From NCBI GenBank assembly GCA_027310565.1, contig DAIDAP010000037.1, forward strand, positions 256,163 to 320,162: a DNA stretch of 64,000 nt. The letters run 5' to 3'. The position numbers were made by a program, and so were the translations under genes. This document shows, piece after piece, positions 73 through 56,149 of this stretch. Numbering within the stretch: the stretch's first letter is position 1; every line of letters starts with the position of its first letter. This DNA comes from Chloroflexota bacterium. GTDB lineage: Bacteria > Chloroflexota > Limnocylindria > P2-11E. The notes beneath the pieces were generated by a model, which was not told the DNA's origin, searched no databases, and saw only the letters and a program-made list of their open reading frames with translations.

Positions 73-87
73 GCGCTCCTCTCCAAC

Positions 88-115
88 AAAAAAGCCGTCC
101 CGCTCTCGGGACGGC
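88..115 (-). terminator. Intrinsic-terminator-like hairpin plus U-tract in the 5' leader of the minus-strand gene at 1..72 (possible attenuator or riboswitch expression platform)
   Basis: On the minus strand: GCCGTCCCG-AGAG-CGGGACGGC (9-bp GC stem) followed by UUUUUU. The U-run ends 3 nt before the RBS. A run of A/T is highly unusual in this GC-rich DNA. Confidence 0.35.
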
Positions 116-341
116 AAAGCCGTGGTACCACCCGAGTTGCCCGCTCCCGCTCCGGACCGGGCCACTCCTCTTGGAGACGTCAAACAACGTCCGCCGCTTG
201 ACAACGGAGCGGCCGCTCCGGCCGGGTCTAGTCGCCCGTCGAGGGCTTTCTTCCGGCAGCTCGGGGTGGATGGCCCCTCGGCGCCTTTCGGGGCAAGTCT
301 ACAGCGGGGCGCGCCGCGGCCCCCGCCCCCGTCGCCCCGCC

Positions 342-47710: not shown

Positions 47711-50696
<2,986 letters not shown>

Positions 50697-51329
50697 GTGA
50701 AGCAGGGCGGCGACGCCAAGGCGGTCCCGGTCGGCACGCGCGCCCTGGTCACCGAAGGAGGTGCGCACGGGAACGATGCGGCGCTCGTCCTGGCCGCCAA
50801 GGCGGGCGACCCGAGCGCGTTCGGAGAGCTCTACGAGCGCTACCGGGACGCGATCTACCGCTACTGCCTGGCGCGGACCGGCTCGGCGCACGACGCCGAG
50901 GACCTCGCCGCGGACGTCTTCGTGAAGGCCCTCCAGTCGCTCGACCGCTACCAGGACCGCGGGCTGCCGTTCGCGGCGTTCCTCTACCGCATCGCGCGGA
51001 ACGCCGCGATCGACCGCGTGCGCGTCCTGAAGCAGCCCCTGTCGGTCGACACGCTGGTCTCCGAGCCGCCATCCGGCCAGAACGTGGAGGCCGAGGCGTC
51101 CCTCGGCGTGGAGCGCTCGATCCTGCTCGCGGCGCTCACGCGGCTCAAGGCCGAGCATCGTGAGGTCATCGTCCTGCGCTTCATCGAGGGCTACGGCGCG
51201 GTCGAGGTGGCGCGGATGCTCGGGCGCACCGAGGGCGCGATCCGGACCATGCAGCACCGCGCGCTGGAGCGCCTGCGCCGGGAATTCGACGACGCCGAGC
51301 GGCTCGCGGCGAAGCGGGTGGCGAAGTGA
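50697..51329 (+). CDS. ECF (sigma-70 family, group IV) RNA polymerase sigma factor
   Basis: Region 2 (DLAADVFVKALQSLDRY...FLYRIARNAAIDRVR) and region 4 (VIVLRFIEGYGAVEVARMLGRTEGAIRTMQHRALERLR). GTG start. Confidence 0.85.
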   Translation: MKQGGDAKAVPVGTRALVTEGGAHGNDAALVLAAKAGDPSAFGELYERYRDAIYRYCLARTGSAHDAEDLAADVFVKALQSLDRYQDRGLPFAAFLYRIARNAAIDRVRVLKQPLSVDTLVSEPPSGQNVEAEASLGVERSILLAALTRLKAEHREVIVLRFIEGYGAVEVARMLGRTEGAIRTMQHRALERLRREFDDAERLAAKRVAK

Positions 51330-52255
51330 ACGACGATCGCCTCGTCGGGCTGCTCGGCGCGCTCCGTCACGAGCGCATGGAGCGCGACGCGGACGAGCGC
51401 ACCCGGCGCCGCCTCGAGGAGGCCTGGGCCCGCCGGGCGCGGCGCGGCGGCCGCCGCTGGGCCGCGCGCTGGCTCGTCCCGTTCCTGGCGACGCTGGTCC
51501 TCGTCGGCGCGCTCGGCAGCACGGTCGCGAACGCCTCGGGCGACAGCCCGCTCTACGCGATCCGCGTCCTCGTCGAGGACGCGCGCGCCGTCCTCTACGC
51601 CGATCCCGCGGACCGCGCGGTTTACCTGCAGGCGCTGCTCGACCAGCGACAGGCCGAGGCCGCGCGCCTGGAGGCCGCCGGCAACGCGCTCGCGGCCGAG
51701 CGGGTGCGGCGCGTCGAGCGGCAGACGCTCGCCCAGCTCCGCGCGCTGGTGCCGCAGGAGCCCGAGCCCGAGCCGAGCGCGCCGCCGCCGCCGCCGACCG
51801 ACACGCCGACGCCGACGCCCGCTCCGACCCCCGCCGCGACGCCCGCGCCCTCCGCCCCGCCGACGGCGACGGCCGGTGCCGGCGTCCCGACCGCGACGCC
51901 GCGCCCCTCGCTCTTCACCGCGCGGCCGACCCTCTTCACAGCGCGGCCGACGCCGACGCCCACGCCGAAGCCGACCTCGACCGCGTCCATCGTGCTCGTG
52001 AAGGGCACCGTGAAGAACCCCGATGGGACGCTGAACACCGGCGCGTGCGTGTCGCTCACCGCCGGCGTCGGATGCCTGGCGACGGTGCGCGACGGGGCCT
52101 ACTCGTTCGCCATGTCCGCGCGGCCGGGCCAGACCGTGACCGTGTACGCGTTCACCACCGACGCGACCGGCAAGCTCACCGCGAAGGCGGTCGCGAGCGG
52201 CACCGTGAAGGCCACGACGCTCGAGCTGGCCCCCGTCAAGCTCACCCCGCTGTAG
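51326..52255 (+). CDS. Anti-sigma factor: single-pass TM, periplasmic helical domain, Pro/Thr-rich linker, C-terminal beta-sandwich
   Basis: GTGA overlap with the sigma gene. The N-terminal cytoplasmic segment is followed by a TM (WLVPFLATLVLVGALG). The C-terminal sequence VLVKGTVKNPDGTLNTGACVSL...TVTVYAFTT resembles a carboxypeptidase-regulatory-like domain. Confidence 0.7.
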   Translation: MNDDRLVGLLGALRHERMERDADERTRRRLEEAWARRARRGGRRWAARWLVPFLATLVLVGALGSTVANASGDSPLYAIRVLVEDARAVLYADPADRAVYLQALLDQRQAEAARLEAAGNALAAERVRRVERQTLAQLRALVPQEPEPEPSAPPPPPTDTPTPTPAPTPAATPAPSAPPTATAGAGVPTATPRPSLFTARPTLFTARPTPTPTPKPTSTASIVLVKGTVKNPDGTLNTGACVSLTAGVGCLATVRDGAYSFAMSARPGQTVTVYAFTTDATGKLTAKAVASGTVKATTLELAPVKLTPL

Positions 52256-52313
52256 CCCGGCCCGCTACCGGGTTGCTACCCGGCCGTCGCTACGGCCGGC
52301 CCGCCCGCCGTCG

Positions 52314-53297
52314 TTGTGGGGACCGATGCTGCTCCGCTGGGTCCTCACCACGGTCCTCGTCGCCGGAGGGGCGACCGCGGTCATCGCGCCGGCCGCAGAG
52401 ATGGCCCGCCAGCGCACCACCGTCGCCACGCAGCGCAGCGAGACGACCCCGTCGCCCGAGCCGACGCCGAGCTTCGAGGACCTGCTCATCGCGTGCATCG
52501 AGTCGGGCAACCCCGACGGCGCCGCGTGCGCCCGCGCGCAGGCGGTGAGCGGTTTCCCGGCCGACGAGTTCCGCGCGCGCGTCGTCGAGATCATCGGCAC
52601 CGTGTCGAAGCCCGCGCCGACGCCCGCGCCGACCGCGAAGCCCGAGCCCACCAAGGAGCCGGCGAAGACGCAGGCGCCCGTCGCCAAGGCGCCCGTGAAG
52701 GCTCCGGCGAAGACGCCGGCCGGCGAGGACTTCTGGACCGTCTTCGACAAGTGCCTCGGCACGCGCGACGTGACGAGCGACGTCTGCCGCCGCGCGCAGC
52801 AGCTCATCGGCTTCGGCGACGCGGACTTCCGCGCGAAGTTCGACCGCTACCTCGCGCAGAAGGACGCCGCCGACTTCGCGACGTACTTCTCCAAGTGCCT
52901 CGAGACGCGCGACCTTCTGAGCGACACGTGCCGCACGGCCTTCCGGCTCTCGGGCCTGAGCGAGGCCGACTTCAAGGCGAAGTTCGAGGCCAAGCTCGAC
53001 GGCGACTTCTCGGCCTGGTTCGCCAAATGCCTCGGCACGCGCGACGTGACGAGCGACGCGTGCGCCCGGGCCCAGCAGCTCATCGGCTTCAGCGACGCGG
53101 ACTTCCGCGCGAAGTTCGAGCGCTACCTCGCGCAGCGCGACGCGGCCGCCAAGACCGACGAATACGCGAAGTGGCTCGAGGCGTGCGTCCTGACGCGCGA
53201 CCTGGGCAGCGACGCCTGCGCGAAGGCGTGGCAGCTCTCCGGGCTCGCCTACGAGACCTTCCGCGACAAGGTCCTCGCGAAGATCAGCGGCGGCTAG
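52314..53297 (+). CDS. Secreted/anchored protein composed of five ~35-45-aa two-cysteine repeats (uncharacterised repeat family)
   Basis: N-terminal TM/signal; Pro-rich linker (PAPTPAPTAKPEPTKEPAKTQAP). Repeats of the form F..KCL.TRD..SD.C..A..L.G....DF.AKF. TTG 52314 or ATG 52326 as start. Confidence 0.65.
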   Translation: MWGPMLLRWVLTTVLVAGGATAVIAPAAEMARQRTTVATQRSETTPSPEPTPSFEDLLIACIESGNPDGAACARAQAVSGFPADEFRARVVEIIGTVSKPAPTPAPTAKPEPTKEPAKTQAPVAKAPVKAPAKTPAGEDFWTVFDKCLGTRDVTSDVCRRAQQLIGFGDADFRAKFDRYLAQKDAADFATYFSKCLETRDLLSDTCRTAFRLSGLSEADFKAKFEAKLDGDFSAWFAKCLGTRDVTSDACARAQQLIGFSDADFRAKFERYLAQRDAAAKTDEYAKWLEACVLTRDLGSDACAKAWQLSGLAYETFRDKVLAKISGG

Positions 53298-53316
53298 ACC
53301 AGCTCCTCACTTCCCC

Positions 53317-53358
53317 TCCTCGCGCCGAACGGCGCGCCTCCGCGGCGCGCCGTTCATT
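53317..53358 (+). terminator. Perfect 12-bp GC hairpin downstream of the Cys-repeat gene
   Basis: GAACGGCGCGCC-tccgc-GGCGCGCCGTTC; weak T content after the stem. Confidence 0.5.
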
Positions 53359-53443
53359 CGTACGAGGCGATGCCGTCCGGCGCGGCCACCTGGTGACGTT
53401 CGGCCCTCACGTTGCGCTCCGGCGTCCGGGACGCTTGACTTCC

Positions 53444-56149
53444 ATGGCCATCGCCACGACACCGGCGGCCTATCCCTCGCATCGCGCGGCGGACGTCGTC
53501 CTGCGCGACGGCCGCGTCGTCCACATCCGCCCGGTGCGCGCGGACGACGAGGCCGGGGTGCTCGCCCTGCTCCGCTCGCTCTCCGCCGACGCCCGCGGGT
53601 TCCGCTTCTTCTCGCAGGCCACCGACCTGGGCGGCGAGGCGCGCCGCGCCGTCGACGTCGACTACCGCGACCGCTACGGCCTCGTCGCCCTTTCGGGCGG
53701 GGACCGGCGGGTCGTGGCGCAGGCCGCGTACTTCGCCGACGCGGGCGGGCGCGCCGAGGTCGCGTGGGTCGTCGCCGACGAGTACCGGGGCCGCGGCCTC
53801 GGGACGCTCCTGCTGGCTCACCTCGCCGAGCGCGCCGAGGAGGTCGGCGTCGGGCCGTTCGTGGCCTACGTCCTCCCGGAGAACCAACTCATGATCGAGG
53901 TGCTCCGCGAGAGCGGCCTCCCGCTGCGCAGCGCACGCGCCGACGGGCAGATCGTCTTCGAGTTCCCCACCTCGCTCTCGACCGCCGCGCGCGAGCGCTT
54001 CGAGGCACGCGAGCAGGTGGCCACGGCCGCGAGCCTCGCGTCGCTGCTGGCGCCGCGCTCGATCGCGGTCATCGGCGCGTCGCGCTCGCGCGGGACGATC
54101 GGCGGCGAGATCTTCCACAACCTGCTGGAGACCGGCTTCCGCGGCCCGGTCTATCCGGTGAACCCGCGCGCCCCGGTGATCCAGTCGGTGCGGGCGTACC
54201 CCGGCGTCGCCGAGATCCCCGACAGCGTGGACCTCGCGGTCGTCGTGGTCCCCGCGGCCGACGTCCTCGACGCGGCCCGCGACTGCGCGCGCGCGGGCGC
54301 CCGCGCGCTGGTCGTCATCTCCGCCGGGTTCGGCGAGACCGGCCCCGAGGGGCTCGCGCGGCAGCGCGAGCTCGTCGAGATCTGCCGCGCGTCGGGCATG
54401 CGCCTGGTCGGCCCCAACTGCATGGGGATCGTCAACACGGCCGCCGACGTGCGGATGAACGCGACGTTCGCGCCGACGTTCCCGCCCGCCGGGCGCGTCG
54501 GCCTCATGTCGCAGAGCGGCGCGCTCGGGCTCGCGATCATCGACCAGTGCGCGGAGCGCGGCATCGGCCTGTCGACGTTCGTCTCCGTCGGCAACAAGGC
54601 GGACGTCTCGGGCAACGACCTCCTCCAGTACTGGGAGACCGACCCGGCGACCGACGTCGCGCTGCTCTACCTCGAGTCGTTCGGCAACCCGCGCAAGTTC
54701 GCGCGCATCGCGCGCCGCGTCGCCCGGCGCAAGCCGGTCCTCGCGGTGAAGAGCGGCCGCTCCGTCGCCGGCGCGCGCGCCACCTCGTCGCACACCGGCG
54801 CGCTCGTGGCGGCGTCCGACGTCACCGTGGACGCGCTGTTCGCGCAGACCGGCGTGGTCCGCACCGACACGCTCTCCGAGCTGCTCGACGCGGCGGCGCT
54901 GTTCGCGTCGCAGCCGCTCCCGGCGGGTGACCGCGTCGGCATCGTGACCAACGCCGGCGGCCCGGCCATCCTCTGCGCGGACGCCTGCGAGGCGCGCGGC
55001 CTGCGCGTCCCGCCGCTGCCCGAGGCCGTCCGCGGCGCGCTGCGCGCGGCGCTCCCGCCCGAGGCCTCGGTCGCGAACCCCGTCGACATGATCGCGTCGG
55101 CGACGCCCGAGCAGTACGCCCAGGCCATCCACGCGCTCGCCGCGTCCGACGCGGTGGACGCGATCGTCGCGATCTTCATCCCCCCGCTCGTGACGCGGCT
55201 CGAGGAGGTGGCGCGGGCGATCGCGGCCGAGGCAGGCCGGCTCCCCCGGCCGGTCCCGCTCCTCGCGGTGCTCATGGCCGAGGACCGCGCGCAGTCGGTC
55301 ATGGCCGCGGCGCGCGTGCCGGTGTACCCCTACCCCGAGGACGCCGCGCGCGCGCTCGCCCACGCGGTGAAGCACGCCGCCTGGCGCGCGAGGCCGGAGT
55401 CCGCGCCGCCGGTCTTCGCCGACATCCGCCCGGACGCCGCGGACGCGGTCATCCGGGGGGCGCTGGAGGCTGAGCCCGGCTGGCTCGATCCGGCGGAGGT
55501 CGCGGCGCTGCTGGGGGCCTACGGGCTGCCGCTCGCGCCCTTCCGAGTCGCCGCGGATCCGGCCGCGGCGGGCGCGGCGGCGGAGGCGCTCGGCGGCGCG
55601 GTCGCGCTGAAGGCGATCGCGCCGGGCCTGGTGCACAAGACCGAGGCCGGCGCGGTGCGCCTCGGCCTCGCCGGGCGCGAGGCGGCCGCGCGCGCGGCGG
55701 CGGAGCTCGTGGCGTCGCTCGGGCCTTCGACACGTTTCCTCGTGCAGACGATGGCCGAGCCCGGCGTGGAGATGCTCGTGGGCATGGTCCACGACGCGTC
55801 GTTCGGCCCGGTGGTCGCCTGCGGCGCGGGCGGCACGTCGGTCGAGCTGCTGCGGGACGTGAGCGTCCGCGTCGCGCCACTCGCCGCCGCCGACGCGGGC
55901 GAGATGGTCCGCGCGCTCCGGACGTTCCCGCTGCTGGACGGCTACCGCGGACGGCCAAAGGCCGACGTCGCGGCGCTCGAGGACGTCGTCCTGCGCGTGT
56001 CGGCGCTGGTCGAGGCGCACCCCGAGATCGCCGAGCTGGACTGCAACCCGGTGATCGTGGGACCGAACGGCGCGGTCATCGTGGACGCCCGCGTCCGCGT
56101 CGCGCCGGTCGCGCCGCGGCCGCCGCTGTCGTCGCTGGTCGCGCCGTAG
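53444..56149 (+). CDS. Bifunctional GNAT acetyltransferase / NDP-forming acyl-CoA synthetase (Pat-like protein acetyltransferase family, GNAT N-terminal)
   Basis: N-terminal GNAT (VVADEYRGRGLGTLLLAHL), then CoA-binding domain, succinyl-CoA-synthetase-like ligase domain and ATP-grasp. 901 aa. The overlapping 954-aa antisense ORF is rejected. Confidence 0.8.
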   Translation: MAIATTPAAYPSHRAADVVLRDGRVVHIRPVRADDEAGVLALLRSLSADARGFRFFSQATDLGGEARRAVDVDYRDRYGLVALSGGDRRVVAQAAYFADAGGRAEVAWVVADEYRGRGLGTLLLAHLAERAEEVGVGPFVAYVLPENQLMIEVLRESGLPLRSARADGQIVFEFPTSLSTAARERFEAREQVATAASLASLLAPRSIAVIGASRSRGTIGGEIFHNLLETGFRGPVYPVNPRAPVIQSVRAYPGVAEIPDSVDLAVVVVPAADVLDAARDCARAGARALVVISAGFGETGPEGLARQRELVEICRASGMRLVGPNCMGIVNTAADVRMNATFAPTFPPAGRVGLMSQSGALGLAIIDQCAERGIGLSTFVSVGNKADVSGNDLLQYWETDPATDVALLYLESFGNPRKFARIARRVARRKPVLAVKSGRSVAGARATSSHTGALVAASDVTVDALFAQTGVVRTDTLSELLDAAALFASQPLPAGDRVGIVTNAGGPAILCADACEARGLRVPPLPEAVRGALRAALPPEASVANPVDMIASATPEQYAQAIHALAASDAVDAIVAIFIPPLVTRLEEVARAIAAEAGRLPRPVPLLAVLMAEDRAQSVMAAARVPVYPYPEDAARALAHAVKHAAWRARPESAPPVFADIRPDAADAVIRGALEAEPGWLDPAEVAALLGAYGLPLAPFRVAADPAAAGAAAEALGGAVALKAIAPGLVHKTEAGAVRLGLAGREAAARAAAELVASLGPSTRFLVQTMAEPGVEMLVGMVHDASFGPVVACGAGGTSVELLRDVSVRVAPLAAADAGEMVRALRTFPLLDGYRGRPKADVAALEDVVLRVSALVEAHPEIAELDCNPVIVGPNGAVIVDARVRVAPVAPRPPLSSLVAP

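Follow-up and report, generated by a model that had tools for sequence, protein, structure and literature searches.

What does a sigma factor of the extracytoplasmic function (ECF) type control when its gene and that of a putative membrane-bound anti-sigma factor stand directly before a gene for an exported protein of no recognised family? This question is raised by a stretch of 64,000 nucleotides from a Chloroflexota bacterium of the class Limnocylindria (assembly GCA_027310565.1, contig DAIDAP010000037.1), which we refer to as the window. Its positions 50697–53297 hold three co-oriented open reading frames (ORFs) on the + strand: the sigma gene, the putative anti-sigma gene (gene 2) and a gene for a protein built from repeats with paired cysteines (the repeat gene; Table 1). 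The reading that we favour, with moderate confidence, is that this locus is a Limnocylindria-specific ECF sigma/anti-sigma module with a dedicated local target, an exported helical repeat protein stapled by disulfides.

We gathered 34 loci, 24 of which had readable upstream DNA, and in all 24 the sigma gene and a homolog of gene 2 lay directly before the repeat gene. These triads fall into four types by their surroundings. Type 1 (17 of these 24 loci) has the neighbourhood seen in the window, where aconitase genes and, in divergent orientation, a homocitrate-synthase-like gene are found. Type 2 triads lie beside MoxR/VWA/BatA genes and are followed by a Peptidase_C39_2 gene, those of type 3 lie beside a divergent M20 peptidase and those of type 4 are preceded by a cNMP-binding gene. 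The sigma factors of types 1 and 2 are ~52% identical and their gene 2 products ~32%, and their repeat proteins are only distantly related. As all three genes diverged between the types, the sequences indicate that the triad is a unit that was copied and diverged as such, into four unrelated neighbourhoods. A sequence-only reading of the window had proposed a coupling of the repeat protein to the ECF pair, and this coupling held at every one of the 24 loci.

Within each type, the sigma and repeat genes were observed to have an upstream DNA box in common, and this box differs between the types. In relatives of the window's locus it has the form TG(T/C)A(C/T)-N17-CGTT(C/G), a candidate ECF-type promoter-like box shared by the two genes. 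The promoters of the related ECF40 sigma factors, GTAAC-N17-18-CGAT, have a similar form (PMC12019637). Among 12 distinct orthologous sequences upstream of sigma, CGTTCC was invariant and the upstream half of the box varied at single positions. Of the 18 type-1 loci listed, 16 have CGTT(C/G)(T/A) at 7–14 nt (35 nt in locus L007) ahead of the ATG of the repeat gene; in triad types other than type 1 it stands 45–60 nt ahead of the ATG. The type-1 repeat-gene spacer comes in two forms. In one group it reads GCTACC-N5-GATACC-N8-TGTAYGG-N15-CGTTCT, the three-box layout before CGTT being present in L001, L003, L010 and L018, with L005 keeping boxes two and three only; the other group has the two-box form GCTAC-N6-GA(C/G)ACCACSG-N15-CGTTCT. 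The corresponding sites of types 2 and 4 are TGAGTGAGC-N13-CGTTAG before sigma and TGAGGAAGC-N13-CGTTGW before the repeat gene.

Matches to the pattern T[GC][TCA]A[CT]-N17/18-CGTT[CG][TCA] were nearly confined to these sigma-upstream and repeat-upstream sites. Each of L001, L003, L005, L010 and L018 had exactly two matches, one at either site. Both sites also matched in the type-3 loci L030 and L031; those of L031 fit the pattern as it had been derived from type 1, and those of L030 needed the TGAAC variant, which was added later. A position weight matrix (PWM) trained on sigma-upstream sites only ranked the repeat-upstream site 2nd–6th of 8,500–37,000 positions in five type-1 loci and 3rd of 21,668 in L031. 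The sigma-upstream box coincides with a 10-codon upstream ORF (50668–50700, + strand; M-(H/Y)-x6-F-V-P-stop), whose TGA overlaps the sigma GTG. Its wobble positions are invariant at both ends and its middle codons are free, so that this conservation points to a constraint at the nucleotide level.

Boxes of this kind are not confined to the triad itself. In most type-1 loci the unit also holds a second repeat paralogue of the Cys-pair kind, which has diverged, and in three of these loci (L001, L002 and L010) a Peptidase_MA_2-like gene lies downstream. One CGTT box stands before the second paralogue and another before the MA_2-like gene, the latter box being CGTTGA exactly 6 nt before the GTG, a leaderless geometry. 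In the type-2 locus L012, the Peptidase_C39_2 gene lies directly downstream. The window has neither the second paralogue nor the MA_2-like gene, which were lost or never present.

In the window itself, the sequence-only reading had noted three GCTAC direct repeats in the spacer before the repeat gene, and these are indeed present, as GCTACCG, GCTACCC and GCTACGG. The heptamer GCTACSG occurs in the window about once per 4.7 kb with both strands counted, so a cluster within 32 bp is not a matter of chance. The spacings of the three boxes agree with those of the three-box group, with one more nucleotide in the gap before CGTT. This match suggests that the direct repeats are the window's version of the three conserved boxes, the third being −35-like. 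RNA structure in the spacer (52256–52325) was considered and ruled out, since this segment folds no better than shuffles (z = 0.2); an 8-bp hairpin at 52280–52299 is specific to the window.

The length of this spacer depends on the start of the repeat gene, being 58 nt to TTG 52314 and 70 nt to ATG 52326. A product of 327 amino acids (aa), which begins at the TTG, had been read at first; the gene itself stood and its start did not. The public annotation of the same contig has products of 210, 309 and 323 aa, and therefore the third gene probably starts at ATG 52326. The TTG, which lies inside the conserved CGTTGT box, was ruled out.

The first gene of the triad had been called an ECF sigma factor from the letters alone, and the profile searches agree. 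Its product matched Sigma70_r2 (PF04542) with 70.7 bits, Sigma70_r4 (PF04545) with 46.5 bits and TIGR02937 with 97.6 bits against a cut-off of 42.9, which places it in the ECF (group IV) sigma-70 family. The nearest relative of solved structure is BldN (PDB 6DXO, E = 2e-27). The BldN model TIGR02952 was also the top NCBIfam match at 121 bits, under its cut-off of 206.45, and the ShbA model NF007230 gave 119.6 bits, under a cut-off of 209. By these curated cut-offs the sigma factor is neither a BldN nor a ShbA, and the two are its nearest relatives only.

The GTG start of gene 2 overlaps the sigma stop codon (GTGA). In all loci, gene 2 is co-oriented with sigma and follows it. The model of its product has a single transmembrane (TM) helix, with the N-terminus on the cytoplasmic side and an ectodomain on the other. 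The homologs found, each of ~300 aa, number at least 186. Their alignment has a conserved N-terminus, MNDDRL..LL..LR.ERMER.AD...R.RLE.AW, followed by a hydrophobic helix, a conserved helical ectodomain, a Pro/Thr stalk of ~80 residues and a C-terminal domain with two invariant cysteines. The ectodomain resembles DUF5667 (PF18915), for which the window's protein scored 25.6 bits against a gathering threshold of 27, and a precomputed match to this family was found on nearly all of the 120 listed homologs of the 186. The C-terminal beta-sandwich, compared with the PDB by Foldseek, was similar to CarboxypepD_reg/transthyretin-like domains at E = 8e-4 to 1e-2, the matches including teneurin, the PapC C-terminal domain and the SusC N-terminal extension. 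The invariant cysteines of this extracytoplasmic domain (C241/C250) would fit with oxidative folding outside the cell. The cytoplasmic part has just 47 residues, and any likeness would therefore be to the two-helix class II of anti-sigma factors. From position, translational coupling and topology we infer that gene 2 encodes an anti-sigma factor. The earlier call to this effect accordingly keeps its basis in the position, the start/stop overlap and the single-pass topology, and the protein would be expected to bind the sigma factor. Within the Pro/Thr-rich stalk region, a tandem duplication (…PSLFTARPTLFTARPT…) at 51890–51945 on the + strand is specific to the window.

Next, we analysed the repeat protein. 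It runs from a hydrophobic N-terminus through a short conserved segment to repeat R1, then a linker, then R2–R4 back to back, and then a short spacer and R5. The five two-cysteine repeats that had been claimed from the letters were confirmed: the protein has exactly 10 cysteines, every one in a C-x10-C pair, and five or more such pairs occurred in only 1 of 100,000 shuffles. The repeat consensus given earlier suits R2–R4, and R1 and R5 have diverged from it, with 20–43% identity to the other repeats. Four repeats follow the linker and R1 precedes it. Between R2 and R4 the identity is 82% at the protein level and 89% at the DNA level (48–69% in DNA for the other repeat pairs), which points to a recent intragenic duplication or gene conversion between the two. 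At the N-terminus, where a TM segment or signal had been proposed, there is a hydrophobic stretch. The family has a conserved ...VAPAxDMA here, and AxA-type ends are also found in distant subfamilies; by the −3/−1 rule, the stretch with its A-P-A end looks like a Sec signal that is cleaved off, and it need not be an anchor.

An AlphaFold2 (AF2) model built on 29 homologs was all-alpha. Its predicted local distance difference test score (pLDDT) was >90 for each of the repeats, whereas the N-terminus and the linker scored <50. The model gives three helices to each unit of ~44 residues. Helix 1 ends 3–4 residues after the first cysteine, and the second cysteine is 2–3 residues into helix 2, with a five-residue loop between the two helices, a geometry that suits a disulfide; most likely the paired cysteines of each repeat form such a staple. 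Between R2 and R3, and again between R4 and R5, helix 3 of the first unit is continuous with helix 1 of the next.

The sequence-only reading could not assign the repeats to a known family and had named such an assignment as what would refute it; none came from our searches. With Pfam, the best match of the window's protein was Colipase-like (PF15083) at 17.5 bits against a gathering threshold of 27, with no significant stretch, and NCBIfam returned low-complexity noise only. A PDB sequence search with the full protein and a profile search with the 44-column repeat profile gave no match. Foldseek with the whole model found nothing better than E = 1 in the PDB and 0.15 in BFVD. Some domain leads were examined and rejected. 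The Colipase-like match, sub-threshold in 18 of 29 close members, was set aside as an artefact of cysteine spacing, given the all-alpha model; colipase is a beta-rich multi-disulfide fold. DUF4168 (PF13767) had no match in the window's protein at E <= 1 and appeared in only 3 of 32 distant members, with a maximum of 36.8 summed bits in one of them (P0045), and was likewise dismissed as an artefact. COX6B, matched by Pfam in one family member, was attributed to cysteine spacing, and the HTH_92 lead to cysteine spacing or low complexity. Literature searches under the names DUF5667 and DUF4168 found nothing on either. As Pfam, NCBIfam and the PDB gave no match, the repeat, a unit predicted with high confidence, appears to be an undescribed domain family and is a candidate for a new domain-database entry.

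A word-indexed search gave 33 close homolog clusters at 90% identity, the sole named one being from Candidatus Limnocylindria. These proteins carry three to five repeat units, with linkers only after R1 and, in some members, also before R5. All their cysteines are in C-x10-C pairs save a stray N-terminal one (P0029) and a wider last pair (P0021 and P0024). R4 holds most of the family's invariant columns, which cluster at residues 243–276. The sequence-only reading had proposed looking for the repeat in other genomes and for its association with ECF pairs. The 44-column profile, run against 1.84 billion representatives, retrieved 93 clusters at E <= 0.001, and the association is the one described above for the 24 loci. 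These distant clusters keep the architecture, and their cysteines are still paired at a spacing of 10, 14 or 19–30, with C.KAI.ASGLS..DFWAKF as core motif. A further search from the distant members reached 146 proteins, the named ones being from Limnocylindria or Chloroflexi metagenome-assembled genomes, and a scan of a genome collection for the repeat found seven loci, all of the same lineage. Every named member of the repeat family is from Candidatus Limnocylindria or Chloroflexota.

On our favoured reading, in which the repeat protein is the local output of the sigma factor, the module would work as follows. The BldN-related sigma factor would be held inactive by the co-translated single-pass membrane protein, the short N-terminal helix of which would face the cytoplasm, with the DUF5667 bundle, the long Pro/Thr stalk and the distal, disulfide-bearing beta-sandwich modelled outside. 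An envelope signal would release the sigma factor, which would then transcribe from the TG(T/C)A(C/T)-N17-CGTT(C/G) promoters, and one such box appears to lie immediately 5′ of the repeat gene in near-leaderless geometry. The product would be exported via Sec as five ~44-residue helical units on a Pro-rich stalk, and would serve in or at the cell wall as the dedicated local output of the sigma factor. In most relatives, the same unit would add the repeat paralogue and the Peptidase_MA_2-like protein, each from its own CGTT box.

Several observations weigh against this reading. In the large type-1 group where ACCAC replaces TGTAC, the PWM rank of the repeat-upstream site falls to ~6th–160th, typically 26th–35th, of 5,800–34,000. 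The box before the window's own repeat gene is weak, being GCTACGG with N18 (TACGG-N16-CGTTGT), and the PWM misses it. The strict box pattern did not match the window's own sites, which are therefore divergent. The sequence-only reading had proposed to look for an ECF-type −35/−10 promoter upstream of 52314; a candidate pair is clear in the relatives, and the window has the weak copy just described. At the other end of the locus, CGTTCC abuts the sigma start in type-1 loci, and a transcription start site 6–9 nt past the box would fall within the coding sequence, so that with the usual geometry no translatable sigma mRNA can arise from the sigma box. The start codon is real, because codon 1 alternates between GTG and ATG among orthologs and the codons after it vary synonymously; an internal alternative start 3′ of the CGTTCC box was ruled out, codon 1 being the sole conserved start. 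Finally, Pfam found no recognisable anti-sigma domain (class I ASD, zf-HC2 or RskA) in gene 2, and gene 2 had no PDB sequence match, RsbN included.

It is also conceivable, and we hold this as a tentative alternative, that the repeat protein is a third signalling component, a secreted or anchored co-sensor or feedback modulator that touches the anti-sigma ectodomain besides or instead of being an output. The two readings are compatible, and the disulfides or the fold state might report thiol or envelope stress. There are precedents, as RseB acts on RseA in this way, and CpxP inhibits CpxA while being the top output of the system. The co-duplication and co-divergence of the three genes in four neighbourhood types is what would be expected of proteins that must match each other, although promoter-specific outputs would likewise co-diverge with their sigma factor. 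The N-terminal hydrophobic segment and the residues that follow (VAPAxDMA..QR) show more conservation than is usual for a plain signal peptide, the near-invariance of R4 suggests a specific binding surface, and both the anti-sigma and the repeat protein have Pro-rich stalks and extracytoplasmic cysteine pairs. However, the repeat gene has a promoter-like box of its own, GC hairpins part it from the anti-sigma gene in type 3, and the tandem paralogues and the peptidase with the same box resemble a regulon. A stronger version of this idea, which we consider rather speculative, is a new three-component ECF design with several paralogous triads per lineage, in which the repeat array is the extracellular sensing or feedback element and the anti-sigma beta-sandwich its receptor; the array would, for example, report thiol-redox or wall damage through its cysteine pairs.

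We also weighed the possibility that the protein is a polyprotein precursor, which neighbouring peptidases would cut at the Pro-rich linkers to release disulfide peptides of ~45 residues as signals or toxins. The units are small and have one cysteine pair apiece, and in relatives a Peptidase_MA_2-like (L001, L002 and L010) or Peptidase_C39_2 (L012) gene lies directly downstream. Nevertheless, this is improbable, because the helices run on from R2 to R3 and from R4 to R5 in the model, so that the modules are not separable; moreover, the linkers occur only at the places described above, and a neighbouring peptidase is lacking in the window and in triad types 3 and 4 (type 3 having the divergent M20 gene). 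Least probable of all, and very unlikely in our view, is inherited synteny around a housekeeping wall protein with unrelated regulation of its own, possibly by a direct-repeat-binding protein at the G(C/A)TACC boxes. In its favour, the 11-nt spacing of these boxes does resemble response-regulator sites, all loci are from one class, where the type-1 order could be vertical inheritance, and the window's match to the sigma-type box is weak. Against it, all three genes have diverged and are still found together in four neighbourhoods that are unrelated to one another, and the box is common to the sigma and repeat genes within a type and different between types. A consensus sigma-70 promoter scan of 50200–53600 found no site at threshold; a sigma70 promoter for the repeat gene was the other finding that the sequence-only reading had expected to count against an ECF link.

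Upstream of sigma, a second candidate element was recognised by eye. The sequence TAGCGTCC is conserved there in all four triad types, with TTGnnn 17–18 nt before it in type-1 loci, and both TTGnnn-N18-TAGCGT and TG(T/C)A(C/T)-N17-CGTTCC are conserved upstream of sigma in 15 type-1 loci. A conserved block further to the left was considered as a regulatory element of sigma and rejected, as it is a lysine riboswitch of the divergent gene, and only ~140 nt belong to the sigma gene. This riboswitch lies in the leader of the homocitrate-synthase-like gene (49134–50264; HMGL-like and HCS_D2 domains), after which come the aconitase-family genes, an arrangement that suggests riboswitch control of a lysine pathway of the alpha-aminoadipate type. 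The leader is conserved in all type-1 loci. Between the riboswitch and the sigma promoter regions there is a 12-nt inverted repeat, CTACCGCTGCCG/CGCCAGCGGTAG (50580–50606, + strand), that contains GCTACCG; its inverted-repeat form is specific to the window, the orthologs having GCTACCaaAT at this place.

Past the repeat gene, the terminator-like hairpin of the window, which would close the transcription unit, has counterparts in L001, L002 and L010 at the same position with different stem sequences. A scan of 50200–53600 for terminators with a U-tract made no call, because the hairpin has no U-tract. The conserved pyrimidine-rich motif CCTCAnnTCCCCTCCTCGCG precedes the hairpin (53301–53355, + strand), an arrangement repeated after the repeat genes of the same three loci. 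Directly after the hairpin comes a gene (53444–56149, + strand) for a 901-aa fusion of a GNAT acetyltransferase to CoA-binding, Succ_CoA_lig and ATP-grasp_5 domains, which is of the Pat-like protein acetyltransferase/ADP-forming acyl-CoA synthetase type.

Table 1. Features of the triad locus and its surroundings, in positions of the window unless a residue range or a relative's locus is named
Feature	Position	Strand	Description or basis
Lysine riboswitch (RF00168)	50366–50547	−	65.9 bits against a gathering threshold of 30, E = 3e-16
Housekeeping-type promoter candidate, TTGCCG-N18-TAGCGT	50621–50650	+	By eye, conservation
Bipartite box, TGCAC (50669–50673)-N17-CGTTCC (50691–50696)	50668–50700	+	Conservation; regular-expression match at 50669
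ECF (group IV) sigma gene	50697–51329	+	210 aa; N-terminal extension of ~25–30 aa
Putative anti-sigma gene (gene 2)	51326–52255	+	309 aa; GTG start
Gene 2 product, N-terminal and middle parts	Residues 3–39, 43–68, 75–141		Cytoplasmic helix, TM helix, DUF5667-like three-helix ectodomain (AF2 model)
Gene 2 product, C-terminal parts	Residues ~142–220, 221–309		Disordered Pro/Thr stalk, beta-sandwich with pLDDT ~95 (AF2 model)
Three G(C)TAC(C/G) boxes	52264–52295	+	At 52264, 52275 and 52289; spaced 11 and 14 nt; third −35-like
−10-like box, CGTTGT	52312–52317	+	8 nt before ATG 52326; leaderless or short-leader geometry
Exported Cys-pair helical repeat gene (predicted)	52326–53297	+	323 aa from ATG; 327 aa if from TTG 52314
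N-terminal signal peptide or anchor	52326–52394	+	MLLR, hydrophobic stretch WVLTTVLVAGGATAVIA, A-P-A end
Repeat R1 (Cys 61/72)	52470–52601	+	Cys pairing, AF2 model
Pro/Ala/Lys/Thr-rich disordered linker	52602–52727	+	42 residues; composition, pLDDT <50
Repeat R2 (Cys 147/158)	52728–52859	+	Cys pairing, AF2 model
Repeat R3 (Cys 195/206)	52872–53003	+	Cys pairing, AF2 model
Repeat R4 (Cys 239/250)	53004–53135	+	Most conserved unit of the family
Repeat R5 (Cys 291/302)	53160–53291	+	Cys pairing, AF2 model
Perfect 12-bp GC hairpin, terminator-like	53327–53355	+	Folding z = −4.15; 0 of 200 shuffles as stable
Extended-unit genes in relatives	L002 9217–10224; L010 9425–10630 and 10777–12150; L001 9026–10285; L012 8186–9358

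Among known systems, the triad is like sigma-BldN/RsbN of Streptomyces (ECF121), where the sigma factor carries an N-terminal extension (PMC7826278) and the anti-sigma factor RsbN crosses the membrane once, with much of the protein outside the cytoplasm (PMC6101532). BldN there targets the genes for chaplins and rodlins, which aerial hyphae require (PMC6101532). Unlike RsbN, gene 2 has 47 cytoplasmic residues instead of 117 and no sequence similarity to it. The repeat protein differs from the chaplins in being charged and all-alpha, and it has no Pfam match to the chaplin domain. Chaplin domains, too, carry two cysteines. The order of sigma factor, membrane anti-sigma factor and exported third protein is also that of rpoE-rseA-rseB in E. 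coli, and the periplasmic protein CpxP, which is alpha-helical and induced by stress, serves as output and feedback inhibitor at once. Unlike in these systems, the organism is presumably monoderm and a promoter-like box stands before the third gene itself; similarity to them in sequence or fold was not found.

The repeat unit itself recalls the CHCH (twin CX9C) and CS-alpha/alpha folds, in which cysteines on two antiparallel helices flank a short loop, and the weak COX6B (Pfam) and kappa-KTx matches reflect this cysteine pattern. In contrast to CHCH domains, with two CX9C motifs and two disulfides each, the unit has one C-x10-C pair and a third helix, and is concatenated in what would be an extracellular array; it does not belong to that family. 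As tandem three-helix units of ~45–58 residues on wall-spanning stalks, the protein A, GA, FIVAR and CW_7 modules are similar as well, and non-significant Foldseek matches (E >= 6) include a protein A repeat design and Cpl-7. The repeat differs from these in its conserved cysteine pair, and no sequence similarity to them was found.

Among the signalling systems of bacteria, ECF sigma/anti-sigma pairs form the third largest class, and to our knowledge neither the signal nor the output is known for most ECF groups. Limnocylindria are an uncultured class that is common in soils and lakes. What is new here is a repeat domain family around a known kind of ECF system. If the repeat protein is only a structural wall protein, the result is a useful annotation and no more. 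The fixed and repeatedly duplicated link between an ECF pair and an exported protein family provides a concrete candidate for an output or partner of ECF signalling in Limnocylindria, and the shared box offers a candidate promoter code for tests in heterologous hosts.

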